Source: Candidatus Parcubacteria bacterium
GTDB taxonomy: Bacteria; Patescibacteriota; Minisyncoccia; Minisyncoccales; JAGMDC01
DNA: 64,000 nt
Assembly: GCA_023130975.1 (NCBI GenBank)
Contig: JAGMAD010000001.1
Location: 17,238 to 81,237 of the forward strand
Reading direction: 5' to 3'
Below the pieces are notes generated by a model. That model was given only the letters and a program-made list of their open reading frames with translations. It was not told where the DNA came from and ran no database searches. The translations under genes and the position numbers were made by a program. Position 1 is the first letter of the stretch. Each line of letters opens with the position of its first letter. Of this stretch, positions 8,126 to 34,092 are shown piece after piece.

Positions 8126-9494
8126 GTTCTTCTTTTTCTGATTTTTCTAAGTTTCTAAAACTGACCCTTTGCTCGTCAAAATAAAGCTCAACCTTACCTG
8201 GCGGACCATTACGATGCTTGGCAATAATAATATCAGCAATGTTTTTTCGCGCAGTATCAGGCCTGTATTTATCTTCCCGATGGATAAACAATACTACATC
8301 CGCATCCTGCTCGATGGCTCCGGTTTCGCGAAGGTCTGATAAACGAGGAATTTGAGGAGAACGTTGCTCAACTGCTCTGGATAACTGGGATAGAGCCAAA
8401 ACTGGAATTTCTAATTCTCGAGCTAATCCTTTTAAAGAACGGGAGATTTCAGTCATTTGTTGAACCATAGTCACATTTATATTTCTTGGCTCCATAAGCT
8501 GGAGGTAATCAACAATAATCAAGCCCAGCCCTTTGTCTGCCTGTAAACGTCTGGCCATGGCTCTCATTTGAAGAATATTAGAAGTGGCAGCGTCATCAAT
8601 AAAAATAGGTGCTTCAGATAGAACTCCTAATGATTGCTGGATTCTGGAAAAGTCATTATCTTCCCCCTGACTGGAGAGACGGCCGGTTCTAAAACGCCAT
8701 AAATCAACATTGGCTGTGCTGGCGATTATTCTGTCTACCACCTGGTCTTTGGACATTTCTAAACTGAATATTCCTACTGGAATTTTATGGTGAAGAGCAG
8801 CATAGCGGGCAATATCCAAAGCCAAGCTTGATTTTCCTAAAGATGGCCTGGAAGCCAAAATAATCAGGTCAGATTTTTGAAGCCCAGCCAATTTGTTGTC
8901 TAAATCAATAAAGCCGGTAGGCACCCCTCTAATTCCGCTTTTTTGTTTTGAAAGAGCATCTATTCTTTCAAATGCTTCTTCTAAAGTATCTTTTACTTGC
9001 ACAAAGTTTTGAGAAAGTGATTTTTGGGCAATGCTAAAAATTCTTTTTTCGGCATTATCCAGCAAGACATCAACATCATCTGTTTCGTTATAGCCCATTA
9101 AGCCGATTTCATAAGAAGCGCTTATCAAATCTCTTAAAATTCTTTTTCTCTGGACGATACTGGCGTAATTAAAAACATGAAGGGCATTGGGAACAGAGTT
9201 TATTAATTCAGTCAAATAGCTGTTTCCTCCAATATTTTCTAATTGCTCTTTTTCCTTAAGACGGCTGGAAACAGATAGCAAATCAACCGGCTCTCTTCTT
9301 TCAAAAAGCTCTGCCATTACTTGATAAATCTGCTGATGGGTTCCTTGGTAAAAATCTTTTGACTGAATAAAATCTACCACCTTAACAATAGCGTTTTTAT
9401 CAATCATTAAAGAACCGAGCAGGGACTTTTCTGCTTCTATGTTTTGAGGCGGAAGTTTGTCCGGTAATTCATTTTTAGAAATATCTCCGTTCAT
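8103..9494 (-). CDS. dnaB: Replicative DNA helicase DnaB
   Basis: PQNIEAEKSLLGSLM N-terminal domain, Walker A SRPSLGKSS, IIVDYLQLM, RecA-like C-terminal domain. Overlaps recR by 23 nt. Confidence 0.95.
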   Translation of the reverse strand: MNGDISKNELPDKLPPQNIEAEKSLLGSLMIDKNAIVKVVDFIQSKDFYQGTHQQIYQVMAELFERREPVDLLSVSSRLKEKEQLENIGGNSYLTELINSVPNALHVFNYASIVQRKRILRDLISASYEIGLMGYNETDDVDVLLDNAEKRIFSIAQKSLSQNFVQVKDTLEEAFERIDALSKQKSGIRGVPTGFIDLDNKLAGLQKSDLIILASRPSLGKSSLALDIARYAALHHKIPVGIFSLEMSKDQVVDRIIASTANVDLWRFRTGRLSSQGEDNDFSRIQQSLGVLSEAPIFIDDAATSNILQMRAMARRLQADKGLGLIIVDYLQLMEPRNINVTMVQQMTEISRSLKGLARELEIPVLALSQLSRAVEQRSPQIPRLSDLRETGAIEQDADVVLFIHREDKYRPDTARKNIADIIIAKHRNGPPGKVELYFDEQRVSFRNLEKSEKEELGESEYE

Positions 9495-9870: not shown

Positions 9871-10191
9871 ATGAGACGAGGAGAGAAAAGAAGAGAAAGA
9901 GAAATTTTGAAAACTCGGAGGAACATAAGGAGTTTTCTGAGAAAAATAGAGAGAAACCTTCAAAATGTCTCTTTGGTAGATGAAAAAAAAGGGTTAAAAA
10001 TCTCCAAAGAGGGAAATGGTTGGGCAGTCAAAAAAGCAGATATCGTTGATATCGAAATTGCTCCCCTAAAAAAAATAGGAAAAAGCTCTTTCCCTGTAAA
10101 GTTCACTTCGTTAGTAGACCTCGAAAAAGAGGTCAAAAGCGAAGAAGTAATAAATTTTGGAAAGTTCTTAGAAAAAGCAAAGATAATATAA
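9871..10191 (+). CDS. Hypothetical protein
   Basis: 106-aa ORF, purine-rich, with a basic N-terminus. No recognisable family. Confidence 0.4.
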   Translation: MRRGEKRREREILKTRRNIRSFLRKIERNLQNVSLVDEKKGLKISKEGNGWAVKKADIVDIEIAPLKKIGKSSFPVKFTSLVDLEKEVKSEEVINFGKFLEKAKII

Positions 10192-10210
10192 GGGATACAC
10201 TATGGTCCCT

Positions 10211-11332
10211 TTATTTTTTTAATATTTCTCTAAATGCCTTAATTACTTTTTCTAAATCTTCTTTATCAATAGAAAAAGTAGAAAGTTTGAAATGCTTGGT
10301 AAGGCCTGGTTTTATTCCTGTTATTCCTCGTTTCTTGAGTTCGTAATGCAAGAAAAATCTCCCTTTTGGATGTTTTAATGAAATTTTATAAAATGGCTCT
10401 GCTTTAAAAAATATTAAATCGTGTTTATGGGGTTTATCGCCTATTTGTTTCAGGCCTAATTTCTCCATTTCTTTTGAAAACCATTGGGCTTTTTTCTTTT
10501 CTTTTTCCCAATTTTTGACTCTTTCTAAAACAGCAGGGAATGAAGCCATTAAAGTAGCCATAGCTGTTCCTCTTAATTCAGAACCTAAAAATTCTATTTC
10601 TTGTTGAGGATAGATTTTTGATTTTCTCAAGATGATTTTTTCCCATTTTTTATCCATACCCAAGACGCCAATAGGTCCGGAGGAAGCCATTGATTTTTGG
10701 CCTGAACCAATTATGAAGTCAGCTCCAAGCTCCTTCATAGAAATTGGCATTCTTCCCACTGCATAAGCCCCATTGATTAAATACGGAACCTGGTATCTTT
10801 TGACAATCTCTCCCAATCTTTTGGCATCCGGTAAATTCCCATAATTTCCATCAGGATAAGTTAAAAGAACCAGGGCTGGTTTATGTTTTTTGATTAAGTC
10901 CTCATAATCCTCTACATTTATTTTATATTCCGGCTCTCCAGAATTTGGAACTTCAACAACTTTTAAGCCAGTCCTTTCAGCTGCTATAATGGTGGTATAA
11001 TGTCTGTTTCCATCAACAAGTATTGTCTTGCCTGGTTTTGCAATGGAATGTATTACATTAAATATGCCTTCCCTTACTCCAAGAGTAATTCTAACAATAT
11101 CTGCCCCCAAAAATTTTGGCATGGTTTCCTGAATAAATTCTTTAATTAAAGGCATTTCCATCAGTTCTAACCCAGGACTAAGATCATAGATAGAATATCC
11201 ATCACCAAACTCAACCAAGGCCTTTTCTGCCACCTTAGTTAATTCTCCTCCTTTCTGGATGGGATTTAAGTTAATCAATCCCTTATTCTTTCTTTCTAAT
11301 TTCTCAAATTTTTTGAGATTTTCATTAGTCAT
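10211..11332 (-). CDS. pscS: O-phospho-L-seryl-tRNA:Cys-tRNA synthase (SepCysS) homologue, cysteine-free
   Basis: Full-length similarity to archaeal SepCysS as recalled (INLNPIQKGG, GDGYS, VRITLGVREG, LLTYPDGNYGNLPDAK, NGAYAVGRMP, PLP-Lys motif GSGQKSMASSGP, TLMASFPAVLERVKNW, YELKKRGITGIKPGLTK). Overlaps sepS by 8 nt. Confidence 0.85.
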   Translation of the reverse strand: MTNENLKKFEKLERKNKGLINLNPIQKGGELTKVAEKALVEFGDGYSIYDLSPGLELMEMPLIKEFIQETMPKFLGADIVRITLGVREGIFNVIHSIAKPGKTILVDGNRHYTTIIAAERTGLKVVEVPNSGEPEYKINVEDYEDLIKKHKPALVLLTYPDGNYGNLPDAKRLGEIVKRYQVPYLINGAYAVGRMPISMKELGADFIIGSGQKSMASSGPIGVLGMDKKWEKIILRKSKIYPQQEIEFLGSELRGTAMATLMASFPAVLERVKNWEKEKKKAQWFSKEMEKLGLKQIGDKPHKHDLIFFKAEPFYKISLKHPKGRFFLHYELKKRGITGIKPGLTKHFKLSTFSIDKEDLEKVIKAFREILKK

Positions 11333-12752
11333 TTTTCTCTATTTCCATATCCACAAAAATAGGACCCCTAACATCAATCTTTTTGTTTTTTGAGGTGATA
11401 AATTTTTCCATTACTTTTTCTAATTCCAAATTAATTGACGGCAAAGTATCAGCTATTTTTATGGTATGCCTGCCAAAAGATTTCTTTTCAGCCAGCCAAG
11501 CGAACAAATTGGAAATCGCTTCTATGTAACTGTAGACCTTAATTCCTTTTTGAACCTCTTTTTGAAACTTTTTATCATTTTTATTTATTCCTAAAATATT
11601 TCCTTGATAAACATAGACAGTATTTAATCCGGCCGGTCCCAACAGTTTTTTATTGGTCTCGGGTTCGCTGATAAAAATTTTAACATCCTGATCCTTATAA
11701 ATTAGAAATTTTTGGGGACCAATTTCATCTTTGTATTTCAAAATGGCTTTTTCAATTTTTTTCTTTAATACTTTGCCTATTTTTGTCTTTGGCTGTTTTT
11801 TTAATTTAATATGAGAAGCAATTTCCTTATCATTAAAGACAGAAGAGGCATAAAATTGGGGATAAACCAATTTCCGAATATCAGTTATATTTTTTTTAAG
11901 CATGGCGAGCCGTTCCACCCCAAAGCCAACATTGAAAACCGGGTAGGGGATATTGTAATTAGACAAACTTATCGGAGAGTATAGCCCGCCATCTCCAACC
12001 TCTATGTTTTTATCTTTCTGTTTCACAAAAACTTCAAATTCTGTTTCCGGGGCGTAATAATTTGATGTCGCTGTTTTGGTTTCAAAGATAACTTTTGGAA
12101 AACCCATTTTTGAGAGGATTTTTTTTGTTAGGATTTTGCCTTCATTTAAATCAAGCTTTTTATCAACAACCACCAAAGAAGCGCTTAGGGACTCGTAAAG
12201 ATGCAAAGAATCTTGCTGCTGTTCTCTTCTAAATTTACTTCCGATAGAGAAAAGCTTTAAGGGAAGAATGTTTTTCTTGATGAGAGAGTTAATGGTCAGA
12301 AACCAAGCAGCAGTCATATGGGAACGGAGAACAGATTTTGTTGGTATTGGCTTTAATTTTTTGAGTTTTGGGAATAAAGTTAAAATCTCTGTTGCTTTTT
12401 CTGCTTTTATTTTTAACTTTTTGACCATTTCTTCAATCAAGTTATCAGCCTCTATCGTCCCTTTTTTAAATTCACGGAAGATTTTTTGAAGCTCTTTAAC
12501 ATCAATATCGGCAATTTTTTTTATCTCTCCAATGGTTTTTTTGGATATCCCAAGTTCGGGGATAGGAAGACCAGCTAAATAAAAACTCCTATTTAAAATA
12601 AGAGGAGCTTCGGCTCCATATTGCCTGTAAACATCTTTTTCCTGAATAATTGAAGGGTTTATTATTTCTTCAAACCCATAATCAAGAAAAACTTTTCTAA
12701 ATTTTTCAGTTAGCTCAATAACAGAATGTGGCTTACCTTTTTTTCTTTTCAT
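11325..12752 (-). CDS. sepS: O-phosphoserine--tRNA ligase (SepRS)
   Basis: Near-collinear with M. jannaschii SepRS as recalled (FYLAGLP, FKKGTIEADNLIEEM, LRSHMTAAWFLT, LPLKLFSIGSKFRREQ, YYAPETEFEV, GLYSPISL, NVGFGVERLAM, VYPQFY, KKLLGPAGLN..VYVY.GNI, IDVRGPIF). Start moved to the ATG at 12752 because the tracked extension runs through the tRNA-Cys gene. Confidence 0.9.
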   Translation of the reverse strand: MKRKKGKPHSVIELTEKFRKVFLDYGFEEIINPSIIQEKDVYRQYGAEAPLILNRSFYLAGLPIPELGISKKTIGEIKKIADIDVKELQKIFREFKKGTIEADNLIEEMVKKLKIKAEKATEILTLFPKLKKLKPIPTKSVLRSHMTAAWFLTINSLIKKNILPLKLFSIGSKFRREQQQDSLHLYESLSASLVVVDKKLDLNEGKILTKKILSKMGFPKVIFETKTATSNYYAPETEFEVFVKQKDKNIEVGDGGLYSPISLSNYNIPYPVFNVGFGVERLAMLKKNITDIRKLVYPQFYASSVFNDKEIASHIKLKKQPKTKIGKVLKKKIEKAILKYKDEIGPQKFLIYKDQDVKIFISEPETNKKLLGPAGLNTVYVYQGNILGINKNDKKFQKEVQKGIKVYSYIEAISNLFAWLAEKKSFGRHTIKIADTLPSINLELEKVMEKFITSKNKKIDVRGPIFVDMEIEKND

Positions 12753-12753
12753 A

Positions 12754-12824
12754 AGCCGGGAGGGAGAGTCGAACTCCCTTGAACCGGTCTGCAGCCGGCC
12801 GCATATCCGTTCTGCCATCCCGAC
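12754..12824 (-). tRNA. tRNA-Cys (anticodon GCA)
   Basis: Hand-folded cloverleaf. Acceptor GUCGGGA/UCCCGGC, U8, D stem GCA(G)/(A)UGC, anticodon arm GCCGG-CUGCAGA-CCGGU, 4-nt variable loop, T arm GGGAG-UUCGACU-CUCCC, discriminator U73. CCA is not encoded. Confidence 0.85.
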
Positions 12825-12864
12825 CTGTTTTTTTTATTATATCTAATATAAGCAATTCTTTCAA

Positions 12865-16836: not shown

Positions 16837-16861
16837 CGAAAGTTAAAAAATATTTAAAAAT

Positions 16862-17386
16862 ATGGCGACACAAGATTTAGCTAAAAAACCTAAAGACCAA
16901 ATTTATTACGCTTTTATTGATAGCCAGAATCTAAATTTAGGCATCCAAAGTTGTGGCTGGAAATTAGATTTTGCCAGATTTTATATTTATCTTAAGGATA
17001 AGTATAAAGCGGAAAAAGCGTTTTTGTTTATTGGTTATGTTGCCGGCAATGAGGCACTATACACCTTTCTACAAAAAACAGGATATATTGTTATATTTAA
17101 GCCAACATTAGAATACAAAAAGGACGATGTAGTGCATACCAAAGGCAATGTTGACGCTGAATTAGTTTTACACACAATGATAGAATACCCAAATTATGAT
17201 AAAGCGGTTATCGTTTCTGGCGATGGTGATTTTCACTGCTTAATTGAATATTTAGAACAAAAAAGAAAATTGGGACGAGTTATTATTCCGAACAGAAAGA
17301 GTTATTCTCAGCTTCTCTGGAAATTCAAAAAATATATGGATTTTATGAATAATTTAAGAAATAAACTTGAAAGACACAACAAATAA
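16862..17386 (+). CDS. NYN (LabA-like, PIN-superfamily) domain protein, copy 1
   Basis: YAFIDSQNLNLG, FLFIGY, GNVDAELVLHTM, VIVSGDGDFHCLIEYL. Paralogue of 21828-22346. Confidence 0.8.
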   Translation: MATQDLAKKPKDQIYYAFIDSQNLNLGIQSCGWKLDFARFYIYLKDKYKAEKAFLFIGYVAGNEALYTFLQKTGYIVIFKPTLEYKKDDVVHTKGNVDAELVLHTMIEYPNYDKAVIVSGDGDFHCLIEYLEQKRKLGRVIIPNRKSYSQLLWKFKKYMDFMNNLRNKLERHNK

Positions 17387-17440
17387 AAAAAGGGGTGTCG
17401 CTTTAAGGACGAAACCTTAAAGACTTTTCCCCTTCGTGAT
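17385..17440 (-). ncRNA. Candidate ~55-nt hairpin RNA convergent on NYN copy 1
   Basis: Bounded by the promoter at 17447-17474 and a hairpin plus U run (GAAGGGG..CUUUAAGG-UUUCGU-CCUUAAAG..CCCCUUUUUUU). Start is approximate. Confidence 0.4.
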
Positions 17441-17446
17441 ATATTA

Positions 17447-17474
17447 AGTATAGCAAACTGACACCCCTTGTCAA
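17447..17474 (-). promoter_or_regulatory. Sigma70-like promoter TTGACA-16-TATACT on the minus strand
   Basis: -35 at 17469-17474 and -10 at 17447-17452, read on the minus strand. Confidence 0.5.
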
Positions 17475-17522
17475 GTGGAAAATTACACTTAACCAAAAAA
17501 GAAAATAAAACTTGAATTAGTT

Positions 17523-17671
17523 TGCCCGAGGCGATTGCCTCGGGCTTTTGTTTTTGATTGCTATTGAGTACCAAAAAAACCTGTCCTGAGCCTGTCGAAG
17601 GAATTGATAAAAACCCAAAAATGAGTTAAATTAAAGTAATGGAGGAAAATAAAAACAGAATAAAGGACTTA
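17523..17671 (+). repeat. Duplication copy B: terminator hairpin plus the functional radC promoter and 5' end
   Basis: TTGATA (17604-17609), 17 nt, TAAATT (17627-17632), 6 nt, ATG 17639. Differs from copy A by two synonymous changes in the 11 shared codons. Confidence 0.85.
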
Positions 17672-18325
17672 CCCAAAGTAGAACGGCCGAGAGAGAAATT
17701 AATTTTGAAAGGGCCCGAAAATTTAAAAGATGAAGAACTTCTGGCAATTTTGCTTCGGACTGGCAGGGAAGGCAAAAATGTTTTAGATTTAGCCAAGCAG
17801 ATTTTGAATAAACATTCAAAAAAGCGTTTTTTGAAGATGAGATACGAGGATTTAATAAAAGTGAAAGGAATAAACGAAGCCAAGGCCTGCACAATTCTCG
17901 CCAGTATGGAATTAGTCAAAAGAGCCTTAAAAATCCAGGATGAAACCTTACCAATTATTAATTCTTCTAAAGATGTAATAGCTCAAGCCGTTTATTTGAG
18001 AGATAGAACTCGCGAACACCTAATGACTATTTATCTCAACGCTAGAAATGAGATGGTTTGGAAAAAACAATCGACATTTATTGGCACTTTAAATACCAAT
18101 TTAGTTCATCCCAGAGAAATTTTTCAAGAAGCTTTAAAACACAATGCCGCCTCAGTAATTTTAGTCCACAATCATCCTTCAGGAGATAGCGAGCCATCCC
18201 AAGATGACTTAGAAATAACAAAGAGAATTATTGAAGCCGGCAAAATAATGGGCATAGATGTTTTAGACCACATAATCATCACCAAAACCAAAGCATTCAG
18301 CTTCAAAGAAAAAAAGTTGATATAA
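17639..18325 (+). CDS. radC: RadC-like JAB/MPN domain protein
   Basis: IKDLPKVERPREKL N-terminus, HhH region, JAMM motif HNHPSGDSEPSQDD. Confidence 0.9.
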   Translation: MEENKNRIKDLPKVERPREKLILKGPENLKDEELLAILLRTGREGKNVLDLAKQILNKHSKKRFLKMRYEDLIKVKGINEAKACTILASMELVKRALKIQDETLPIINSSKDVIAQAVYLRDRTREHLMTIYLNARNEMVWKKQSTFIGTLNTNLVHPREIFQEALKHNAASVILVHNHPSGDSEPSQDDLEITKRIIEAGKIMGIDVLDHIIITKTKAFSFKEKKLI

Positions 18326-18360
18326 TAAACAAAATCCAAAACTAGAAATATATTAAAACT

Positions 18361-18717
18361 ATGTCAGATATAAAAAACCTAACAGAAAAAATCATAAAAT
18401 TCAGGGATGAACGCGATTGGAAACAATTCAATAATCCTAAAGATGTGGCTTTATCTTTACTTTTAGAAGCAACGGAAGTTTTGGAACATTTTCAGTGGAA
18501 GAATCCAGAAGAAATTGCAGAATATATAAAAACCAACCAAAATGAAATTGGGGAAGAATTGGCTGATGTTCTGTATTGGATTTTATTGATGAGTCATGAT
18601 CTCGAGTTGGATATCTTAGATGTGCTTGAGAAGAAAATTCAAAAAAATCAAAAAAATATCCCATTAAGAAAGCCAAAGGTAATCACACTAAATATAATAA
18701 ATTGTAACTATGCGTAA
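18361..18717 (+). CDS. MazG-like all-alpha nucleotide pyrophosphohydrolase
   Basis: FRDERDWKQFNNPKDVALSLLLEATEVLEHFQW ... GEELADVLYWILLMS (EExxE...D metal-binding helices). Confidence 0.8.
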   Translation: MSDIKNLTEKIIKFRDERDWKQFNNPKDVALSLLLEATEVLEHFQWKNPEEIAEYIKTNQNEIGEELADVLYWILLMSHDLELDILDVLEKKIQKNQKNIPLRKPKVITLNIINCNYA

Positions 18718-19855
18718 TATATTTATACTTTATATGCCGCCGGGTAACAGTGAAGTAATGGTACACTATGAAGATACTATTAAGAATAAAGTTCCGCAGG
18801 AACGGATCTTTAAGTATTTGGATTTTAATTTACAAAATAGGTTAAAAAATGTTTTTAGTAACAGATCTATTGCTGTGTGGGGATCTAGAGATTCTAGTGC
18901 TAATCGTTCGCGTTTCGAAAAAATGCAAATAGGGGACGATATATTAATCGTAGAGGGCGAAATAATCAAACTGATGGGAAAAGTGGCAGCCAAAGTAATT
19001 AGCCCTAATTTGTCGTGCGAGCTTTGGAAAAATTTAAGAGGGGAATCAACAGAGGGATGGAACCTTATTTATTTTATCGCTAACCCACTTGAGATTAATC
19101 TACCATTCAATGAATTTAAGAAGATATTTGGTTACAAACCAAGTTGGAACTTGCGTGGTTTTACGAATATTTCTGATGATAGGCTTGAGGAATTTTATGA
19201 TAAATATGATGACCTTTATTCAATTTTGCAAAAGATAAAAGGCGGAGAAAAAATTGAACAAAAACTTGAGCCAGAGTTTATCAGGGAAAAAGAAATAGAG
19301 AAAACCAGATTAGAGACGGAAGATATAGATGACATTCTGAATAATAAGGAACTCTCCGAACATATAAAAATGCAATGGAAGCTTATCCGACTTGGGTTGA
19401 AAGCTGACTCCAAGGTTTGGATTCCACGAAATGATCAGTCAAGAATAGAAAAGCAATTTGGCTTTAGGGATTTTGAGAAACAATTTGCATCTGGTATAGA
19501 TGTACCTGTGCAATATGTTGAGAATATTGATGTGGTGTGGAAGGAGGAATTTCGTATCCATGCAGCCTTCGAAATAGAGAATACAACTGCAATATATTCT
19601 GGCTTACTTCGTTTTTCTGATTTAAAAATTATAGCCCCTAACAGCCCGTATCCATTGTTTATAGTGGCTCCATTATCAAAGAAGAACCGTGTTTTTCAAC
19701 AAGTGAAGAGGCCGACATTCCGAGAACTTGGCTTTGACAAGGAAGTGCGTTACCTTGCTTATGAAGTAGTTAATGAAATTGACAAGTTTTTTGATAAATC
19801 AAAGAAGGGACTAAATGTTGAATTATTAGTAGGCAAGTCGGAAAAGGCAAGCTAG
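18710..19855 (+). CDS. Hypothetical protein, possible modification-sensing nuclease (weak call)
   Basis: Overlaps mazG-like by 8 nt. The N-terminal half looks like a small beta-barrel (AVWGSR...GDDILIVEGEIIKLMGKV). The C-terminal half has IDVVW...AAFEIENTTAIYSGLLRFSDL, reminiscent of a restriction-endonuclease-like core. No firm family. Confidence 0.3.
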   Translation: MRNIFILYMPPGNSEVMVHYEDTIKNKVPQERIFKYLDFNLQNRLKNVFSNRSIAVWGSRDSSANRSRFEKMQIGDDILIVEGEIIKLMGKVAAKVISPNLSCELWKNLRGESTEGWNLIYFIANPLEINLPFNEFKKIFGYKPSWNLRGFTNISDDRLEEFYDKYDDLYSILQKIKGGEKIEQKLEPEFIREKEIEKTRLETEDIDDILNNKELSEHIKMQWKLIRLGLKADSKVWIPRNDQSRIEKQFGFRDFEKQFASGIDVPVQYVENIDVVWKEEFRIHAAFEIENTTAIYSGLLRFSDLKIIAPNSPYPLFIVAPLSKKNRVFQQVKRPTFRELGFDKEVRYLAYEVVNEIDKFFDKSKKGLNVELLVGKSEKAS

Positions 19856-19937
19856 CTAATTAGCTAGCTGTTTTAATTTGTAGTTTTCACTAAGCGTCTG
19901 CAAAAAGGTCAAAGAATACTAAAACCAGATTGATAAA

Positions 19938-19997
19938 ATGGTATATAAACTTTACGGCTTAACAAAGGAGAAAATTAAAATTGTTGAGCAAAAATAA
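19938..19997 (+). pseudogene. Orphan C-terminal tail of a type IIG/RM-type DNA methyltransferase-like gene
   Basis: Encodes (QIDK)MVYKLYGLTKEKIKIVEQK*. This is the stereotyped ..lVYeLYGLTeeEIkiVE end of such enzymes, preceded by in-frame stops. Confidence 0.5.
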
Positions 19998-20046
19998 AAA
20001 GATGAATAAGGAGTTTTATAATTTTTAAATAATTAAAATAAAATTT

Positions 20047-21726
20047 ATGGCTACTTATCAAGATTTTTCTTTAATTAAAAAAGAGGTTGAGTTTGTTAAA
20101 AAAAGAAATGATATAGATAAATTATCTATGGCTTTTATTTTTATGGTCCTAGAGAAATTATATCCAGATATAGAACCTTTTGAGAATATTACTGATGACA
20201 CAAGAGATTTAAGTGTAGATGCTTATTATATTGATAAAAATACGAAAACAATAAATATTTTTCAATTCAAATATACTGAAAATTTTAATACAGCAAGAAA
20301 TAAAAACGCTTTAAAAGAAAAAGAAATAAACGATTTTATTATAAAATTAAAGTATATTTGGGATAGGGACGAGGAATTTATTAAAAAAGCAAATCATAAA
20401 TTAAAAGACGCAATTAAGGAAATTTGGTCAGCATTTGAAGATGGATATACTAAAACAAATATTTACTTTGTTTCTAATTATAAAGATACAATTAATGGAG
20501 GAAATATTAAGGAAATTCAAAAAAAACTTAAAAATGAATTTAGAGGAAAATTAAAAATATTATCTTTAAATGATTTAATAAAGGTTTTTATAAAAGAAGA
20601 GTTTTCTCCAGTAGATATTAAATTACAGTTAAAGGGTAAAAATTACTTTGAAGAATCAACCGGTGATGTCAGAGCGTTGATTTCAGAAGTAAATGCGTTA
20701 AATTTTTTAAAATCAATTTTAGATGAAAATGATAATTTAATTGAAGATGTGTTTAATGAAAATATTAGGGTTTATTTGCGTTCCAATACAAAAATAAATA
20801 AACAGATATATAATTCTATTGAAAGCAAAAGTAATTATAAATTTTTTTATTACAACAATGGCATTACTGCTATTTGTGATAATTTTGAACACAATTTTTC
20901 TGATAGTCCAATTGTTAATATGGATAATTTTCAAATTGTTAATGGTGGCCAAACAATGCATGCTATTTACGAAGCCTATAAAAATGGATTACAGGATAAT
21001 GTAGGAAATATTTATTTACTTTTAAGAGTTTATGAGGTTAAAAAAAATAGGGAAATTGGTCAAGATATAGCAAGATTTACAAACACTCAAAATCCTGTAA
21101 AAAATAGAGATATAATGTCAAATGATATGATTCAGGTTAAATTACAAAAAGAATTAAGAAAAGAAGGATTTTTTTATGAAAGGAAGAAATACGAATTCAG
21201 AGATCAAAAAATTGGTAATGATAAAAAAGTAGATGCAGAAAAATTAGGACAATCAATCCTTGCTTTTTATATTGACAAACCGGGTTCTGCCAAAAATAAG
21301 AAGCAAGAAATTTTTGGAAATTTTTATAATAGTATTTTTGATGAAAGCAGAATAAATAGCGATTTTGTTCTATTACCCTATCTTTTATATAAAAAGATAG
21401 ATAACGATGTTAGAGAATTTAAAGTAGAACTAAAAAGATTAGAAAAGGCGGGAAAAACGGAAAAAATGAAAACAAAAATAGAAAGAAATGGATTTTTAAA
21501 TTATGCACATTATTATTTATTATTTACATTAAAAGTATTAGCTGATAAGAACAACATTTTGTTTGAAAAGGCAAATATTACAAAAATATTTGAGAATTAC
21601 AATAAGGCAAAAGATATATTACGTAAGATAGTTGATAAGGAAAAAAAGAATCCAAAATTTTCCATGCCCTATCTTTTTAAAACAGACGATCTTGTAAAAA
21701 AGATAAAAGACAAAATTGATAAATAG
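20047..21726 (+). CDS. AIPR (abortive-infection phage resistance) family protein
   Basis: YYNNGITAICD and FQIVNGGQTMHAIY blocks as I recall for the AIPR family. 559 aa, very AT-rich. Confidence 0.55.
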   Translation: MATYQDFSLIKKEVEFVKKRNDIDKLSMAFIFMVLEKLYPDIEPFENITDDTRDLSVDAYYIDKNTKTINIFQFKYTENFNTARNKNALKEKEINDFIIKLKYIWDRDEEFIKKANHKLKDAIKEIWSAFEDGYTKTNIYFVSNYKDTINGGNIKEIQKKLKNEFRGKLKILSLNDLIKVFIKEEFSPVDIKLQLKGKNYFEESTGDVRALISEVNALNFLKSILDENDNLIEDVFNENIRVYLRSNTKINKQIYNSIESKSNYKFFYYNNGITAICDNFEHNFSDSPIVNMDNFQIVNGGQTMHAIYEAYKNGLQDNVGNIYLLLRVYEVKKNREIGQDIARFTNTQNPVKNRDIMSNDMIQVKLQKELRKEGFFYERKKYEFRDQKIGNDKKVDAEKLGQSILAFYIDKPGSAKNKKQEIFGNFYNSIFDESRINSDFVLLPYLLYKKIDNDVREFKVELKRLEKAGKTEKMKTKIERNGFLNYAHYYLLFTLKVLADKNNILFEKANITKIFENYNKAKDILRKIVDKEKKNPKFSMPYLFKTDDLVKKIKDKIDK

Positions 21727-21827
21727 GAGGTGAAAAAGGGATCAGGAACCTTTTTATAAATTAATGAATGCTGAAGAGTTAAAAGCAAAACAAAAGATTA
21801 AAGAATTAATTAAATTTAAATAAAATT

Positions 21828-22346
21828 ATGGAAAAACAAGAAAGCAATTTTGCGTTTATTGACAGTCAAAACCTTAATTTAGGAATTCAAAACTTGGGCT
21901 GGAAATTGAATTACAGAAGATTTAGAGTTTATTTAAAAGAGAAATATAAAGTATCTATAGCTTATTTGTTTATCGGCTATATTCCAGCTAATCAAGACTT
22001 ATATTCTTCATTGCAAGAAGCCGGGTATGTTTTGGTTTTCAAGCCGACGTTGCCTGATAAGAATGGAGAGGTAAAGGGTAACGTGGACGCAGATTTGGTT
22101 TTACAGGTAATGATTGATTATAAGAAATATAACAAAGCTATAATTGTTACAAGCGACGGAGATTTTTATTCTTTAGTTAAATATTTATACAAAAATGATA
22201 AACTTAGATGCGTGATAAGTCCATATATTAAAACTTGTTCGGTTTTGTTAAAAAAAACAGCTAAAGAAAAAATTGTTTTTATAGAAAATTTGCGTAAAAA
22301 ACTTGAATATAAAATGAAAAAGCACCGCGTAAGGACAAAACCTTAA
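21828..22346 (+). CDS. NYN (LabA-like) domain protein, copy 2
   Basis: FAFIDSQNLNLG, YLFIGY, GNVDADLVLQVM, IIVTSDGDFYSLVKYL. Collinear with copy 1. Confidence 0.8.
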   Translation: MEKQESNFAFIDSQNLNLGIQNLGWKLNYRRFRVYLKEKYKVSIAYLFIGYIPANQDLYSSLQEAGYVLVFKPTLPDKNGEVKGNVDADLVLQVMIDYKKYNKAIIVTSDGDFYSLVKYLYKNDKLRCVISPYIKTCSVLLKKTAKEKIVFIENLRKKLEYKMKKHRVRTKP

Positions 22347-22370
22347 AAGGTGCTTTTTCGTATGTATTCT
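22316..22370 (-). ncRNA. Candidate ~55-nt hairpin RNA convergent on NYN copy 2
   Basis: Promoter at 22377-22404, then GAAAAAGCACC-UUUUAAGG-UUUUGU-CCUUACGC-GGUGCUUUUU. Overlaps the last ~10 codons of the NYN gene antisense. Confidence 0.4.
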
Positions 22371-29352: not shown

Positions 29353-30039
29353 TTATTTGACAATTTTCCACTCAATTTTTGATTCTTTATCCGCAAACTC
29401 CAACCATTGGCCATTTTTGTCAATGACATACCACTTTCTTTTTGTGTCTGACCAAACCATTGGGTCGCCTCTATAAAATGGCTTTTTAACAACCTCTTTT
29501 GGCTTTAATCGGTCTAATTCCAACCATTTTTTAAATACTGTTTCAATGGCATAATCCAGATTTCTAGATTTCGCCCATTCAGCGACCGTAGAAATGGCTT
29601 TTTTTGCTTTTTCCATTGAACCAGCAAGTTCTAAAAGCTGCTTTGCCGGCTTGGTAAACCGGGAATAAATAATCTTTCTTTTCTTAGCATTTTGTTTGAG
29701 CTCGCCCAAACTAAGCCCTTTGGTTTGAAAATAATGAGTAACAATCTGACGGATAGCAGTTTCTTGTTTTAATTTCTCATAATATTTAATCTTGCCTTTT
29801 TTCAGATATTCTTCAATTTTATCAGCGATACTTTTCCCCACGCCTTGGATTTCTTTCAAGCCCTTAACATCTCTTTTCTTGTAAATATCAACGATATCCT
29901 CTTTTAAATTTTCCAGAGCCAAAGCGGCTTTATGATAGGCCTGCGGTTTAAAAGACACTCCTTTTATTTTCAACAGTTCTTCTATTTCGTATAATATTTT
30001 AGCGATTTTTTGATTGGTCACTTTATTGATATTTTTCAA
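29353..30039 (-). CDS. Helix-hairpin-helix protein resembling the N-terminal part of family X polymerases
   Basis: NQKIAKILYEIEELLKIKG..FKPQAYHKAALALE...LKEIQGVGKSIADKIEEYL. No palm/NTase domain. Confidence 0.6.
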   Translation of the reverse strand: MKNINKVTNQKIAKILYEIEELLKIKGVSFKPQAYHKAALALENLKEDIVDIYKKRDVKGLKEIQGVGKSIADKIEEYLKKGKIKYYEKLKQETAIRQIVTHYFQTKGLSLGELKQNAKKRKIIYSRFTKPAKQLLELAGSMEKAKKAISTVAEWAKSRNLDYAIETVFKKWLELDRLKPKEVVKKPFYRGDPMVWSDTKRKWYVIDKNGQWLEFADKESKIEWKIVK

Positions 30040-30622
30040 CTTTGAATTTGTAAATTATTATTTTTTCTGTTTGAGGGTTGATATTGGCTTTTTGACAGGC
30101 AATAGAGATTTGTTTTTCTGAAGTATCCACTCCGTCTAAGTCAGGCAAAAGCAGTCCTGATTTAAAATGAGTCCTTGGCGCAGGTTCAAAAATAACATCA
30201 GAACCAGAAGAAAAGGACTGGGATTTTACAAGGATGCCGTATTTTTTCGGATCTAATTCATTTATGCTCTTTATTAATTCTGGTTTATTCAAAATATACA
30301 CAGTATAAGATAGTTCGGGCAACTCCTGTTTCTGAATAGGGGAGAAGCGATAATCTTCAGTGGCCGCAACAATAGCATTATGAATAATTTCCTGGGCAAT
30401 ATTTTCTTTTGTCGGCAAATAAGTGCCAATACATCCACGTAAAACTCGCTTTCGCTCGTCACGTGGCGCGCCCCGCAAATTCTCATCTTTTTCAATAGTC
30501 ACAAATGTGCCAGCTTTTCGGGTCAGAAACTCTTCTGGCAAATTTTTAGACGGAGAAATCGTCTTTCTTTCTTTTATGTAATTTTCCACCGCCTTTTTGG
30601 CAAGTGAGATATATTGATTCAT
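30023..30622 (-). CDS. AMMECR1 domain protein (AmmeMemoRadiSam system protein A)
   Basis: GTFVTI...LRGCIGTY core. Adjacent to the Memo-like and radical SAM partners. Confidence 0.8.
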   Translation of the reverse strand: MNQYISLAKKAVENYIKERKTISPSKNLPEEFLTRKAGTFVTIEKDENLRGAPRDERKRVLRGCIGTYLPTKENIAQEIIHNAIVAATEDYRFSPIQKQELPELSYTVYILNKPELIKSINELDPKKYGILVKSQSFSSGSDVIFEPAPRTHFKSGLLLPDLDGVDTSEKQISIACQKANINPQTEKIIIYKFKVEKYQ

Positions 30623-30731
30623 AAAAAGTGTATTAAATGCCTGTAAATTCTTGCCTCTGGTTTTATTCTACAATGATTTTAGCAATAAAAAAAGAGGAGA
30701 ATTGTCTCCCCATATGTCTTCTATGTGTCTT

Positions 30732-31025
30732 CTATATGTCTTCTAAAGAATATAATCTATAGTTCCTGGAAAGATACCAACGATCTAGCAAAAAGAGAGT
30801 GGTGCCTAAGTAAACGAAAATCGATCCTGTCACATATAAACAAATTGTCAATCCTCTTGTCAATCCTCCAAAATCCAAAGTCCATGCTACAGCTATGAAT
30901 ATCAATCCAGTTACCATGTTAGTTACATGGTATTTTACTCTCTCTCCAATACTCATTTCCATCTTTTTTCCAGTTATCATGCTGGTTACATAATGTTTTA
31001 CTTTCTTTCCAATACTTATTTCCAT
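30732..31025 (-). CDS. Small membrane protein with internal tandem repeat
   Basis: ATG 31025 with SD aggagg. MEISIGKKVKHYVTSMITGKK / MEMSIGERVKYHVTNMVTGLIF duplicated ~21-aa unit, then two TM helices. Tracked N-terminal extension rejected. Confidence 0.5.
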   Translation of the reverse strand: MEISIGKKVKHYVTSMITGKKMEMSIGERVKYHVTNMVTGLIFIAVAWTLDFGGLTRGLTICLYVTGSIFVYLGTTLFLLDRWYLSRNYRLYSLEDI

Positions 31026-31187
31026 CTTTTTATCACCTCCTATTCTGTTTAAAACAATGCTACACGTTACGTTCCGGATAGGATTTGAATCTGCGTCTTC
31101 GGCTCGAGAAGCTAAAATACTAAACTGAACTATCACCACCGGAGCATTATTAAAGATAGCATTTTTTACGATTTGTGTCAAGCGAAA

Positions 31188-31874
31188 TTATCGTAATTTG
31201 AAATTTACGACGAGATAACCGACGCCGAAAGGGTATTCGTATGATAAAATTTCCGGCTGCCAATTTAAACCCGAGGCCTGTAAAATTCCTAAAAGAAAAG
31301 AAAAAGAGCGCAGGCCGCATTCGCCGGCCTCTGGAAAATATTCATCTAACTTCAAAAAATTTTTAATATCTTTTTTCTTTAGATATTCAATCAATGCCTT
31401 GTCAAATTTTGGACCATCAGGATGAAGACCATAAGGACCATCTTCTTTTAAGCAGTGAGACATATCACCAGAAGCGATCAGGGCATATCTCTTTTCTTTT
31501 TCCAATTTATTATGAACTACCCTGCCCTTCAGGGCAGGGTATCCCTCCGGGCAAGTTCTTTCGACGGCTTTCATCCCGCCGCCGAAATAAAACTTTTTTC
31601 CTCGTTGATAATAAAAATCAGGAGTTTTATCAGGAATAAATAATTGCCGGCTTGGAATACGTTGCTTAGGATTTAAGAAATAAAGCGGAACGTTAAAACC
31701 CCAATCAGGATGAGGAGAGGAAATAATAATATTGTTAGGATTAGATTCCTTTAATTTTTTTCCTAAAAACTCCAAATTTTCAATTGTTTTTTTAACTTTC
31801 TCTCTATCCTCTAGCGAGCCAACTTCAGGCAAAAGCAGGGGAGGATGAGGAGAAAAGCAAGCAAAAGAAATCAT
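31188..31874 (-). CDS. Memo/LigB-superfamily protein (AmmeMemoRadiSam system protein B-like)
   Basis: FSPHPPLLLPE, IASGDMSHCL, AGECGLRSF. Located between the AMMECR1 and radical SAM partners. Confidence 0.65.
   Translation of the reverse strand: MISFACFSPHPPLLLPEVGSLEDREKVKKTIENLEFLGKKLKESNPNNIIISSPHPDWGFNVPLYFLNPKQRIPSRQLFIPDKTPDFYYQRGKKFYFGGGMKAVERTCPEGYPALKGRVVHNKLEKEKRYALIASGDMSHCLKEDGPYGLHPDGPKFDKALIEYLKKKDIKNFLKLDEYFPEAGECGLRSFSFLLGILQASGLNWQPEILSYEYPFGVGYLVVNFKLR
31512..31592 (+). repeat. GC-rich hairpin repeat, family 2, copy b (~81 nt) inside the Memo-like gene
   Basis: atgaactaccctgcccttcagggcagggtatccctccgggcaagttctttcgacggctttcatcccgccgccgaaataaaa. Translated antisense as FGGGMKAVERTCPEGYPALKGRVVH. 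Confidence 0.7.
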
Positions 31875-31889
31875 AAAAATCTCTAATTT

Positions 31890-32981
31890 TTAATTTAAAA
31901 TTAAATTTAAATCTTCTTCGCATTTAGCGCATTTGCCGTTTTTGTCAAAACGTTTGATGGTATAGCCGAGCCGCTCAATTGCCAAAGTCCCGCATTTTGG
32001 ACAATAAGTGTTTTCGCTTTCTAAACCCGGCACATTACCAGTATAAACATATTTTAAGCCAGCTTTTTTACCAATTTCAAAAGCCATTTTTAATGTCTCA
32101 ACCGAAGTATCAGGTAAGTGCTGTAATTTCCAAGAAATTGTACCAGAAAATTGAGAAATATGCCAGGGCGTTTCAATACCTAACTCGTTTTTAATAAAAT
32201 TAGCGATATTTTCAAACATTTCTTTAGAATCAGTTAAGGTAGGAATGACTAAAGTTGTTACTTCTAGCCAAATGTTTTTTCCTTTCAAACGCTTTAGAGT
32301 ATCTAAAACTGGCTGTAATAGTCCGCCGCAGTATTTTATGTAAAACTCATCAGAAAAACCTTTTAGGTCAATATTCGCGGCGTCAAGATAAGGAGAAATT
32401 AAATCAAAAAGTTCTTTTGACCAAAATCCATTGCTAACCCAGACATTTTTTATTCCTTGCTTTTTAGCTAATTTCATTGTATCTAAAGCATATTCAGAAA
32501 AAATGGTAGGTGAAGTATAGGTATAAGCAATAGAAGGTAAATTATTCTCTTTGGCAATTTTAACAATTTCTTCTGGCGATAAATCTTCTCCTTCAATCTT
32601 TCCAGTCAATTGAGGCATTTGAGATATATCATAATTTTGGCAATTTGCACATCTAAAATTACATCCTACAGTGGCGATAGATAATGACTGAGTACCGGGT
32701 AAAAAGTGAAATAAAGGTTTTTTTTCAATAGGATCAATATTACAGGCAATAGCTTTGCCATAATTCAGGGCATAAAGTTTTCCATCAATATTTTCTCTCA
32801 CACCGCAAATCCCTCTCTTTCCTTGTTCAATAACACAATAATGAGCGCAATTTCGGCACTGAACAATTTTGTTCTTTAGTTTTTTGTAAAGATATGCTTC
32901 TTTCACCCCCACACCATAATAAGCACCGGCACCTTTGGTGCCAAAAGACGAAGTATGTGTTTGTTTGGTGTGGGGGTTCAT
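31890..32981 (-). CDS. AmmeMemoRadiSam system radical SAM enzyme
   Basis: N-terminal Cys cluster (CRNCAHYC..GICGVR), radical SAM CNFRCANCQN, C-terminal CPKC..CAKC ribbon. Confidence 0.85.
   Translation of the reverse strand: MNPHTKQTHTSSFGTKGAGAYYGVGVKEAYLYKKLKNKIVQCRNCAHYCVIEQGKRGICGVRENIDGKLYALNYGKAIACNIDPIEKKPLFHFLPGTQSLSIATVGCNFRCANCQNYDISQMPQLTGKIEGEDLSPEEIVKIAKENNLPSIAYTYTSPTIFSEYALDTMKLAKKQGIKNVWVSNGFWSKELFDLISPYLDAANIDLKGFSDEFYIKYCGGLLQPVLDTLKRLKGKNIWLEVTTLVIPTLTDSKEMFENIANFIKNELGIETPWHISQFSGTISWKLQHLPDTSVETLKMAFEIGKKAGLKYVYTGNVPGLESENTYCPKCGTLAIERLGYTIKRFDKNGKCAKCEEDLNLILN
32906..32976. mobile_element. Family-1 MITE-like element (71 nt) inserted just after the radical SAM start codon
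   Basis: CCCCCACACCATAA...TTTGGTGTGGGGG, flanked by direct ttca/ttca (32902-32905, 32977-32980). Confidence 0.65.
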
Positions 32982-33503: not shown

Positions 33504-34092
33504 TTATAATAAAACGTCTATCACCACCTTCTCTGACATCTCTTTATACCTATTTCGTATGGTAACTTCGGCCACGAATCAAACGTTTTTTCATTGCTTT
33601 CCGGTACAATACTGATGCCGCTTCTCTGATGTCTCTTGAGAGTCCAAGCGCACAAGCCATTCGGTCTATCTCAGAAAGAGCGAAAATAAGACTCCTTTCA
33701 CTAGTCATAAGTCCACTATCTCTAACTCTACGTCGCATTCTTCGAAAATCATCTCGTCCTTGAAAATCTTTAGGAAGAAGATTACTTAGTCCTTTATCAT
33801 GTATTCTATTAGTCATTGGTGCTCCGACCCTCACTCTCTTTGAGAATTGCTCAGAGTCAAAAGCCCGCCATTCCGGGCCAAGGTCTATGATATTTTCTGC
33901 TATTACCATACCACACTCAGCACAATAAAGTTCGGCGCGTTTGCGATCCAGTATTAAATCTTTAGAGCCGCATTCAGGACACTTTCTTATTCTATTTGGA
34001 CCTTCTATATTTAAGTTTTCATCATTATTATCATTATTCTGGACAAAATTACGTTTCAATCTTTCTTTAGCTTCTACACTCACTTTTATCAT
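33504..34092 (-). pseudogene. Archaeal-type transcription initiation factor B (TFB/TFIIB), internally deleted remnant
   Basis: ORF 33550-34092 encodes the Zn ribbon, B-reader and B-linker up to ..LIRGRS, then a stop. An overlapping shifted frame across that stop reads [23 protein letters not shown], the conserved TFB C-terminus. Confidence 0.7.

Follow-up and report, generated by a model that had tools for sequence, protein, structure and literature searches.

[quoted passage not shown] The open reading frame starts with ATG, and translation of its 373 codons gave a Cys count of zero, in agreement with the original prediction. Assignment to the family was carried out using the NCBIfam equivalog profile for SepCysS (TIGR02539), which matched residues 14-373 with profile positions 3-368 of 370 and a score of 475.6 bits (cut-off 365.25), and using phmmer against PDB chains, which aligned the A. 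fulgidus (AF) enzyme 2e7i nearly full length (E=1.1e-128) and also identified the M. jannaschii (MJ) enzyme 3wkr/5x6b (E=9e-101). A cysteine desulfurase identity (NifS/IscS/SufS, class V aminotransferases) was rejected, as the best desulfurase profile scored 37 bits against a cut-off of 475 and the catalytic loop Cys that accepts the persulfide is absent from this Cys-free protein. SepSecS was rejected as well, as Ser251 and no Arg is found at the AF Cys247 column and the PF05889 match is cross-family, the SepCysS profile scoring far above this SepSecS Pfam match. The gene is under purifying selection, with a dN/dS of about 0.1 (0.09-0.135 against relatives at 66-85% amino-acid identity).

Residue equivalences were counted along the phmmer alignment to 2e7i. 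Lys213 (Gln212-Lys213, 10694..10699, minus strand) aligns with the PLP Schiff-base lysine AF Lys209 in a column that is invariant across all homologues aligned, the usual His before it (AF His208) being replaced by Gln212 in the sub-lineage of MCK4453754.1. The Sep phosphate-binding residues of the AF enzyme, Arg79, His103 and Tyr104 (PMC2330236), are all kept as Arg87, His111 and Tyr112 in one segment (10997..11074, minus strand), and these three residues, Lys213 and 25 further positions are invariant in variant and canonical sequences. The three catalytic columns, which are Cys in 102/102 canonical homologues aligned, are occupied by Tyr49 at AF Cys39 (codon TAT, 11186..11188), Ser52 at AF Cys42 (codon AGT, 11177..11179) and Ser251 at AF Cys247, the proposed persulfide carrier (codon TCT, 10580-10582), all on the minus strand. 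Ser251 is followed by Glu252 (codons TCT GAA, 10577..10582, minus strand) where canonical SepCysS has Thr/Ser, and one residue is deleted after the Ser52 motif (GRL to G-L). The TAT codon of Tyr49 is a single base away from TGT. The two motifs accordingly read DGYSIYDLSPG and EFLGSELRG in MCK4453754.1, DGYSVCDFCTTG and ELLGCTARG in A. fulgidus, and DGYSVCDYCHG and EMLGCTSRG in M. jannaschii, in which the cysteines are numbered C64, C67 and C272. Loss of the catalytic triad and retention of the PLP lysine, both originally proposed, were thus upheld by a computed alignment; the motifs originally given for the archaeal enzymes, DGYSVCDYCGG and EMLGCTSRG, were nearly right.

MCK4453754.1 belongs to the same fold-type I PLP family as AF0028 (PDB 2E7I/2E7J) and MJ1678 (3WKR, 5X6B), with which it has the PLP lysine, the Arg/His/Tyr phosphate site and a SepRS genomic partner in common, but differs from both in the replacement of the Cys triad by Tyr, Ser and Ser and of the adjacent Thr by Glu, in the residue deleted after the first motif, and in having no Cys for a persulfide or an Fe-S cluster. 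Because the three columns hold Tyr49, Ser52 and Ser251 and the whole protein is devoid of Cys, MCK4453754.1 is, as judged from the alignment, a SepCysS homologue outside the persulfide/Fe-S mechanistic class. An AlphaFold2 monomer computed from the 24-sequence variant alignment had a mean pLDDT of 69, with values below 50 at residues 13-57, 211-221 and 240-257; these segments hold Tyr49/Ser52, Lys213 and Ser251/Glu252, respectively, and form the dimer interface in 2E7J.

Mis-assembly or sequencing error was rejected as the source of the missing cysteines, as the identical protein is encoded in four independent assemblies (three ENA metagenome assemblies and one Logan run) and the motif recurs in 24 other clusters. 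Avoidance or reassignment of Cys codons was also rejected: Cys makes up 0.89% of ORF residues across the window and is found at canonical zinc-finger and radical-SAM positions, with UGY codons encoding the CxxCxGxG repeats of DnaJ, the CxxC pairs of RecR and a radical-SAM CX3CX2C motif. Any Cys is lacking in 4 of the 30 ORFs of at least 300 amino acids in the window; zero Cys alone is not rare in this genome, and what sets MCK4453754.1 apart is that Cys is gone from three catalytic columns in which it does not otherwise vary, a pattern that is not due to chance.

The SepCysS gene is the last element of one compact minus-strand unit of promoter, tRNA-Cys(GCA), SepRS and SepCysS. A sigma-70-like promoter (TTGAAA-17-TATAAT, 12836..12864, 11/12 consensus matches), predicted by sequence alone, ends 11 nt upstream of the tRNA-Cys gene with anticodon GCA (12754..12824), which was identified using ARAGORN and Rfam RF00005 (46.9 bits). 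The tRNA sequence reads as having G37 (archaeal type) and the discriminator U73, and CCA is not encoded. The ATG of SepRS (O-phosphoseryl-tRNA synthetase, 475 amino acids, 11325..12752) is placed 1 nt past U73, at what is predicted to be Met23 of the long ORF because of the overlap with the tRNA and conservation in the relative L087. This SepRS, which contains no cysteine either, scored 431.8 bits against TIGR00470 (cut-off 380.65), matched the M. maripaludis SepRS 2odr (E=4e-102) and displays the class II core motifs RSHMT at 143, SAS at 190 and NVGFGVERL at 274; the RSHMT, SxS and N-x-G-x-G-x-ER motifs presumably carry the Sep-binding residues in SepRS. Its ORF overlaps the start of SepCysS by 8 nt on the same strand. 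SepRS lies directly upstream of SepCysS in the window and in L007, L087, L093, L094, L096 and L098 (the L094 neighbour being a contig-truncated ORF with the class-II synthetase core PF01409), and a tRNA-Cys with G37 and U73 adjoins in the window, L087, L008 and L009/L090. The GC content of the operon (0.33-0.34) equals that of the window (0.327), which indicates that the operon is long resident, and recent horizontal transfer was rejected as an explanation for its oddity.

The substitutions are shared by a variant group that numbers about 25 sequence clusters and spans CPR bacteria as well as DPANN and Altiarchaeota archaea, with the states Tyr / Ser(Ala) / Ser(Cys) + Glu at the catalytic columns: column 49 is Tyr in 24/24 variant clusters, column 52 is Ser or Ala, column 252 is Glu in 23/24, and Phe248 is present in 24/24. 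In a survey of Cys-less homologues, as suggested in the original prediction, 12/25 variant clusters were found to have no Cys in the whole protein. In the 1.84-billion-protein representative search, clustering at 50% merges variant and canonical SepCysS. The near-canonical P0015 is 74% identical to MCK4453754.1. The codon at column 251 is TGY in L010, L011, L012 and L089, TCT in the window, L007, L087, L013 and L014, and AGC in L008, L009, L090 and L062. Since a single change separates TGY from either TCT or AGC, which themselves lie two changes apart, Cys-to-Ser occurred at least twice at this column, and the last Cys was thus lost at least twice; members of the variant group can accordingly dispense with the column-251 cysteine, the last of the triad. 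The shared motif and indel favour a single origin of the variant, but the rest of the protein does not support it, with a neighbour-joining (NJ) bootstrap of 4-6% after masking of the motif columns, and under the same masking the YA* subgroup groups with canonical Methanosarcinales-type sequences; the Tyr/Ser/Ser+Glu class may have arisen more than once.

Two Cys-deficient SepCysS were noted as exceptions by Mukai et al. (2017, mBio, PMC5424206). The first, KPJ56533 from 'Ca. Parcubacteria' DG_74_2, is the assayed relative of MCK4453754.1, with 63% identity to it and a partial Cys deficiency. It is likewise CPR bacterial, is encoded in a SepRS-SepCysS operon and lacks the Cys triad as a unit, but unlike MCK4453754.1 it keeps Cys39 (CDIWYS), one cysteine of the three, and reads His/Tyr-Gln (GHYQKG) where the third would be. 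The purified enzyme was colourless, contained no Fe-S cluster and converted 95-99% of Sep-tRNACys to Cys-tRNACys with 40 mM Na2S, a sulfide concentration far above physiological levels, and it was also active in E. coli (PMC5424206). The DG_74_2 loss looks independent of the Tyr/Ser/Ser group because this enzyme was placed outside the group in both NJ trees. The second exception, from 'GB archaeon No. 4' (Data Set S1, PMC5424206), is of the same type as P0028/P0033, named Aenigmatarchaeota, and is of the MCK4453754.1 variant type, with the motifs DGYATYDISPGL and EFIGSESRG and the three Cys replaced alike. Cysteines remain elsewhere in this protein, and the one located two positions ahead of the PLP lysine (GSCHK) could be a relocated active-site thiol, whereas the entirely Cys-free MCK4453754.1 reads GSGQK. 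The ground for refutation named in the original prediction, published Cys-less homologues that act as ordinary SepCysS, thus exists in part: the enzyme characterised as a working SepCysS is a Cys-deficient relative and not a fully Cys-free one. The use of sulfide or a donor in trans, one of the two alternatives originally offered, is favoured by the evidence, but its description as unreported chemistry was overstated, because sulfide-driven conversion by the Cys-deficient DG_74_2 enzyme had been demonstrated in 2017.

As MCK4453754.1 has no Cys, it can support neither an enzyme-borne persulfide nor Fe-S ligation, and the most likely mechanism is a PLP-based beta-replacement that draws on a source of sulfide external to the polypeptide. 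SepRS would charge the operon's tRNA-Cys with O-phosphoserine, the Sep-tRNA would be bound by a SepCysS dimer as an external aldimine on PLP-Lys213, phosphate would be eliminated to leave a PLP-bound aminoacrylyl (dehydroalanyl)-tRNA, and hydrosulfide would add directly to C-beta to give Cys-tRNACys. Speculatively, Tyr49, Ser52, Ser251 and Glu252 (for Cys, Cys, Cys and Thr) might re-line the former Cys-triad pocket and position or deprotonate H2S. The chemistry would equal that of the O-acetylserine/O-phosphoserine sulfhydrylases acting with free sulfide (CysK, CysM and archaeal OPSS), in which the PLP aminoacrylate is captured directly by hydrosulfide and no enzyme persulfide is formed, but these enzymes have the unrelated fold-type II and take free amino acids, not aminoacyl-tRNA, as substrates. 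SepSecS, a related PLP enzyme that also works on Sep-tRNA, would be a mechanistic precedent by analogy, as in archaea it lacks an active-site Cys and receives its chalcogen (selenium) from a small-molecule donor (PMC2275076). It belongs to a different subfamily, with Arg at the AF Cys247 position where MCK4453754.1 has Ser, and works on tRNA-Sec with PSTK and SelD; tRNA and Pfam annotation gave no tRNA-Sec, PSTK or SelD in the 64-kb window. Sulfide is also a sufficient donor for canonical SepCysS in vitro (PMC2330236).

Either a sulfidic, anoxic environment or a partner protein, by release or direct transfer, could provide the sulfide. Pfam tables covering the window from about base 8 onward and about 9 kb past its right end contained genes of the usual CPR housekeeping set (Mur ligases, DnaB, RecR, DnaK/J, GluRS and an AspRS/AsnRS-class synthetase); no gene for a sulfide-generating enzyme or a sulfur carrier was found in this span, nor any cysS, cysteine desulfurase, CyuA, rhodanese or ThiS/MoaD-like gene. 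In one divergent subgroup (L093, L062), Cys-free SepCysS is encoded in CyuA-like-SepRS-SepCysS operons, and the co-operonic CyuA-like [4Fe-4S] cysteine desulfidase would be the partner there; a role as sulfide transferase has been suggested for CyuA (PMC12647591), and a sulfide donor in trans is plausible for Cys-free SepCysS. It is suggested only tentatively, as a rather doubtful extension, that the Tyr/Ser/Ser+Glu enzymes form a distinct SepCysS mechanistic class, possibly of more than one origin, in which a hydrosulfide-taking pocket replaces the cis persulfide/Fe-S relay and sulfide is provided by the habitat or a CyuA-like partner. If this were true, some CPR and DPANN cells could convert imported free cysteine to Cys-tRNA by way of sulfide, without any CysRS.

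Among the competing explanations, the one that survives best, though it is unlikely, is that Cys-tRNACys is still made but that free sulfide is not the physiological donor, and that a second protein (a cysteine desulfurase, or a rhodanese/TusA-like or ThiS/MoaD/CysO-like carrier) brings in the sulfur as a bound persulfide or thiocarboxylate, docking where the pocket has been re-lined. For canonical SepCysS the donor in vivo has yet to be established (PMC2330236), the DG_74_2 enzyme works inside E. coli, which is rich in persulfide carriers, and the conserved Tyr/Glu substitutions could make a docking or activation site. However, no such carrier adjoins the SepCysS gene in the roughly 12 contexts examined, the sole recurrent sulfur-related neighbour is the CyuA-like protein, which is sulfide-releasing and not persulfide-forming, and MCK4453754.1 has no thiol with which to resolve a persulfide adduct formed on Cys-tRNA.

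It is very unlikely that MCK4453754.1 is dead for sulfur insertion and is kept to bind tRNA or SepRS, or is in decay, with Cys-tRNA supplied by a CysRS encoded elsewhere; if the genome did also have a CysRS, translation could proceed without the SepRS/SepCysS operon. Liu et al. (2012, JBC) reportedly found that mutating single cysteines inactivates M. jannaschii SepCysS in vivo, so that simple Cys loss would not be neutral in the canonical scaffold. Against a dead enzyme stand the dN/dS of MCK4453754.1, the invariance of all PLP and phosphate-site residues, the conservation of the replacement residues across bacteria and archaea, the tight coupling to SepRS through the 8-nt overlap, and the toxic Sep-tRNACys that a dead enzyme would leave behind an active SepRS. 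Least probable is the other alternative of the original prediction, a non-Cys product of Sep-tRNA(GCA) (dehydroalanyl-, seryl- or selenocysteinyl-tRNA, or another beta-substituted alanine) with UGY read differently or ambiguously, for although all sulfur-relay residues have given way to a conserved new set and the operon's own archaeal-type G37 tRNA(GCA) could be a dedicated isoacceptor, UGY encodes the metal-binding cysteines of DnaJ, RecR and the radical-SAM enzyme, SepRS and tRNA-Cys(GCA) are co-transcribed with the SepCysS gene, the SepSecS-equivalent Arg was not gained, the window holds no Sec machinery, and the nearest assayed relative (DG_74_2) makes Cys.

MCK4453754.1 does not represent new chemistry but a clean variant found in nature, because activity of a cysteine-poor relative was demonstrated in 2017, and the significance of a Cys-free SepCysS is tempered by this proof of function in a partly Cys-deficient relative. 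Since 2005 it has been debated what donates the sulfur physiologically in tRNA-dependent cysteine synthesis, and attention has focused on the three cysteines, either as a persulfide/disulfide relay or as ligands of an Fe-S cluster. A SepCysS that is naturally Cys-free, under purifying selection and in an operon with SepRS and tRNA-Cys provides a clean test case, in that an enzyme thiol is excluded whatever the sulfur chemistry, and a construct with which to ask whether realistic concentrations of free sulfide suffice, what roles Tyr49 and Glu252 have, and whether a CyuA-type partner delivers sulfur. It also bears on how Cys-tRNA is supplied in the ultra-small CPR and DPANN organisms.

The SepCysS reading frame of the window (10211-11332, minus strand) translates into a product of 373 residues, MCK4453754.1, which contains no Cys and carries the database name 'SepCysS [Candidatus Parcubacteria bacterium]'. 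The protein scores 475.6 bits against the NCBIfam equivalog for SepCysS, TIGR02539 (curated cut-off 365.25), gives a near full-length alignment with Archaeoglobus fulgidus SepCysS (2e7i; E=1.1e-128) and matches the M. jannaschii SepCysS structures 3wkr and 5x6b with E=9e-101. Residue equivalences were counted along the computed alignment to the A. fulgidus enzyme, in which Cys39, Cys42 and Cys247 correspond to Tyr49 (codon TAT), Ser52 (AGT) and Ser251 (TCT), all three codons being one base from TGT. The original prediction of a Cys-free SepCysS with its three catalytic cysteines substituted, for which a profile or structure alignment of the three columns had been proposed as a check, was confirmed by the translation and by this alignment. 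Cys was present at all three triad columns in 102/102 canonical homologues aligned. The PLP lysine (Lys209 in A. fulgidus) is kept as Lys213 and the Sep phosphate residues Arg79, His103 and Tyr104 as Arg87, His111 and Tyr112; His208 is changed to Gln212. An assembly artefact was ruled out as the source, as the identical protein is encoded on contigs of four independent assemblies. The Cys-free SepCysS is real, and MCK4453754.1 is a homologue without the 'three catalytic cysteines' that the canonical mechanism takes as its criterion.

A census was taken of the best 120 clusters (90% identity) nearest MCK4453754.1 in a collection of 5.8 billion proteins. The triad was Cys/Cys/Cys in 94 of these and 24 carried the motifs DGY[SA]xY[DN][LIV][SA]xG-L and [EY]F[LI]G[SCG]E[LSV]RGT; the remaining two were P0039 (DG_74_2-type, Cys/Tyr/His) and one Cys/Cys/Cys cluster tallied apart solely for the Gln preceding its PLP lysine. 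A search with a profile of the 24 variant clusters returned the same 24 on top (673-728 bits) together with a further cluster, P0271, so the variant group comprises about 25 clusters, below which the match list reaches canonical sequences from 663 bits down with no large gap. Variant members have Tyr at the A. fulgidus 39 column (24/24), Ser or Ala at the 42 column, a one-residue deletion downstream of the first motif, Phe248 (24/24), Ser, Cys or Gly at the 247 column and, at the following position, Glu replacing Thr/Ser (23/24), and their PLP-site and phosphate-site residues are all unaltered in the alignment. Cys251 is the sole cysteine in five clusters, named Altiarchaeota; seven lack Cys251 but carry a Cys at the second position ahead of the PLP lysine (GSCHK), and twelve, MCK4453754.1 included, have no Cys anywhere. 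Among species-representative genomes the variant type was found in nine species, namely a Nealsonbacteria MAG (85% identical to MCK4453754.1, with SepRS adjoining too), three other bacterial MAGs, three Altiarchaeota, one Aenigmatarchaeota and one uncultured archaeon.

Pairwise dN/dS between the MCK4453754.1 gene and relatives at 66-85% identity was 0.09-0.135, showing that the Cys-free SepCysS is under purifying selection. Among contigs carrying related loci, codon 251 is TGY (Cys) in L010, L011, L012 and L089, TCT (Ser) in the window, L007, L087, L013 and L014, and AGC (Ser) in L008, L009, L090 and L062. A single substitution links TGY to either TCT or AGC, but two separate these Ser codons; Cys therefore gave way to Ser at least twice, and the third Cys could be dispensed with after loss of the first two. 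The common indel and the six coordinated residues argue for a single origin of the variant state, which the remainder of the sequence does not confirm in neighbour-joining (NJ) trees calculated from an alignment of P0001-P0060 and others with the motif columns masked. A clade of all Tyr-type sequences had 4-6% bootstrap support, and the sole supported mixed clade (74%) in an otherwise star-like tree joined YA*, a divergent variant subgroup, to canonical Methanosarcinales-type sequences. On the masked columns, identity between the window's lineage and near-canonical sequences was 0.72, compared with 0.69-0.75 between it and other variant subgroups, and outside the motif regions Tyr/Ser/Ser-type sequences are equally similar to near-canonical Cys/Cys/Cys sequences and to one another. 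This non-clustering could stem from a star-like radiation, from repeated origin or from recombination of motif segments.

SepCysS is the last gene of a compact minus-strand unit, following a strong sigma-70-like promoter (TTGAAA-17-TATAAT, 12864-12836, a consensus match only), tRNA-Cys(GCA) with G37 and U73 (12754-12824) and SepRS (TIGR00470, 431.8 bits; E=4e-102 to M. maripaludis SepRS), whose stop is overlapped by the SepCysS start by 8 nt. In the public gene calls the SepRS ORF has 497 aa and begins inside the tRNA-Cys gene (12752-12825, minus strand). Because a conserved ATG lies at 12752, 1 nt past the discriminator U73, and the related contig L087 has the same layout (8498-8575; ATG 4 nt past U73), the true SepRS has 475 aa; trimmed to this length it contains no Cys either. 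Processing of the tRNA 3' end would leave the SepRS-SepCysS mRNA with almost no leader. G37 and U73 occur in 4/4 tRNA-Cys genes linked to variant SepCysS on bacterial contigs (the window; L087:8498-8569; L008:364-435; L009:795-866). G37 in tRNA-Cys is unusual for bacteria, and the pair fits an origin of the module in archaea. tRNA-Cys with G37 and U73 has been termed archaeal type, and some bacterial SepRS clades are coupled to it (Mukai et al. 2022, PMC8762117). SepRS lies directly upstream of variant SepCysS in seven independent contexts, in bacterial (DnaB/RecR) and archaeal (L19e, L18, TBP) neighbourhoods, and the coupling to SepRS and tRNA-Cys looks obligatory; in L009/L090, rpoC and tsaE flank tRNA-Cys and SepCysS, and the neighbourhood has no SepRS. 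Directly upstream of the L087 unit lies a TFIIB-like gene of 462 aa (zinc ribbon PF08271 and TFIIB PF00382; L087:7034-8422), and a 180-aa Zn_Ribbon_TF gene is present in the window (33550-34092, minus strand); archaeal-type transcription-factor domains such as these, in a CPR bacterium, may be further imports from archaea. Convergent with SepCysS is a 106-aa ORF without Cys (9871-10191, plus strand), called as a gene in 4/4 assemblies, without a match in Pfam or NCBIfam and followed by a terminator-like hairpin (10190-10211).

The remaining window encodes ordinary Parcubacteria housekeeping functions (DnaB, RecR, DnaX, Mur ligases, MurL, FtsW, ribosomal proteins, GluRS, DnaK/DnaJ), the MurL-type epimerase (42269-43816, plus strand) lying inside the mur cluster. 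A defence-like island (about 16860-22350) holds two NYN-domain paralogues (16862-17386 and 21828-22346), RadC, a MazG-like protein, an NmeDI_C-domain protein and an AIPR abortive-infection protein. An AMMECR1/LigB-like (Memo)/radical-SAM trio forms an AmmeMemoRadiSam system (30023-32981, minus strand), and its radical-SAM protein has 13 Cys, showing that the organism builds Fe-S enzymes. CysRS was not found in the window, and there are no sulfur-trafficking genes among those annotated there.

SepCysS was surveyed by Mukai et al. (2017, mBio, PMC5424206), with two Cys-deficient exceptions. That of the Parcubacteria DG_74_2 (KPJ56533, in cluster P0039; 63% identity to MCK4453754.1) keeps only Cys39, whereas MCK4453754.1 has no Cys. 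It was colourless when purified, agreeing with the absence of an Fe-S cluster; with 40 mM Na2S it turned 95-99% of Sep-tRNACys into Cys-tRNACys, and it showed activity in E. coli (PMC5424206). The second, from 'GB archaeon No. 4', reads DGYATYDISPGL, EFIGSESRG and GSCHK (Data Set S1, PMC5424206), motifs that assign it to the variant group. No later papers on Cys-deficient SepCysS variants were found in the searchable literature. A Cys-deficient SepCysS demonstrated to work is already known, and MCK4453754.1 is a fully Cys-free variant of an exception flagged in 2017; so far as could be seen, no paper has described a fully Cys-free SepCysS, how large and how conserved the Tyr/Ser/Ser+Glu group is, or that the last Cys was lost repeatedly.

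With its PLP and phosphate sites intact and no thiol, MCK4453754.1 is predicted still to form Cys-tRNACys from sulfide of outside origin. Phosphate would leave Sep-tRNACys by PLP-dependent beta-elimination and hydrosulfide would add directly to the aminoacrylate. Sulfhydrylases capture aminoacrylate with free sulfide. SepSecS likewise has no active-site Cys and uses a small-molecule donor (PMC2275076), resembling the direct addition proposed here. The interpretation in the original prediction is partly supported. Of its alternatives, sulfur from free sulfide or a carrier acting in trans is favoured; its suggestion of chemistry unreported for the family did not stand, since the DG_74_2 enzyme had already been shown to work. 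What Tyr49 and Glu252 do is a matter of speculation, and the AF2 monomer model is unreliable precisely at the segments carrying them.

The sulfide may be supplied by the habitat or by a partner protein. A homologue (PF03313; PDB 9fsl, E=6e-41) of CyuA, a [4Fe-4S] L-cysteine desulfidase, is co-operonic with SepRS/SepCysS at three loci: L093:433-4508 (CyuA-like, SepRS, SepCysS) and L062:40-2532 (CyuA-like, SepCysS), both of YA*, the most divergent Cys-free subgroup, and L076:2617-9106 (CyuA-like, hydrolase, SepRS, SepCysS, SufC, SufBD), from a Methanosarcinales MAG and the nearest canonical relative of YA*. A 2025 paper that makes no mention of SepRS or SepCysS proposes that CyuA acts as a transferase, passing sulfide to sulfur-inserting enzymes (PMC12647591). 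The linkage may point to a physiological sulfide source; there is no CyuA homologue within the window, so for its organism we infer the sulfur donor. At L094:3-3392 a CoaB-like (DFP) gene follows a Cys-free SepCysS.

Alternatively, the sulfur might come from a persulfide or thiocarboxylate on a protein donor acting in trans; no gene for such a donor was linked to SepCysS in any context examined, and MCK4453754.1 has no resolving thiol for a persulfide. An aminoacyl product other than Cys is unlikely, because in the window, where Cys usage outside SepCysS is normal (0.89% of residues), UGY codons fall at the CxxCxGxG repeats of DnaJ, the CxxC pairs of RecR and a radical-SAM CX3CX2C motif, and because the nearest assayed relative, from DG_74_2, makes Cys-tRNACys. 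A catalytically dead enzyme is at odds with the observed conservation. The Cys-free SepCysS, predicted to draw on external sulfide, is a natural test of the sulfur-donor question, of moderate rather than high importance.
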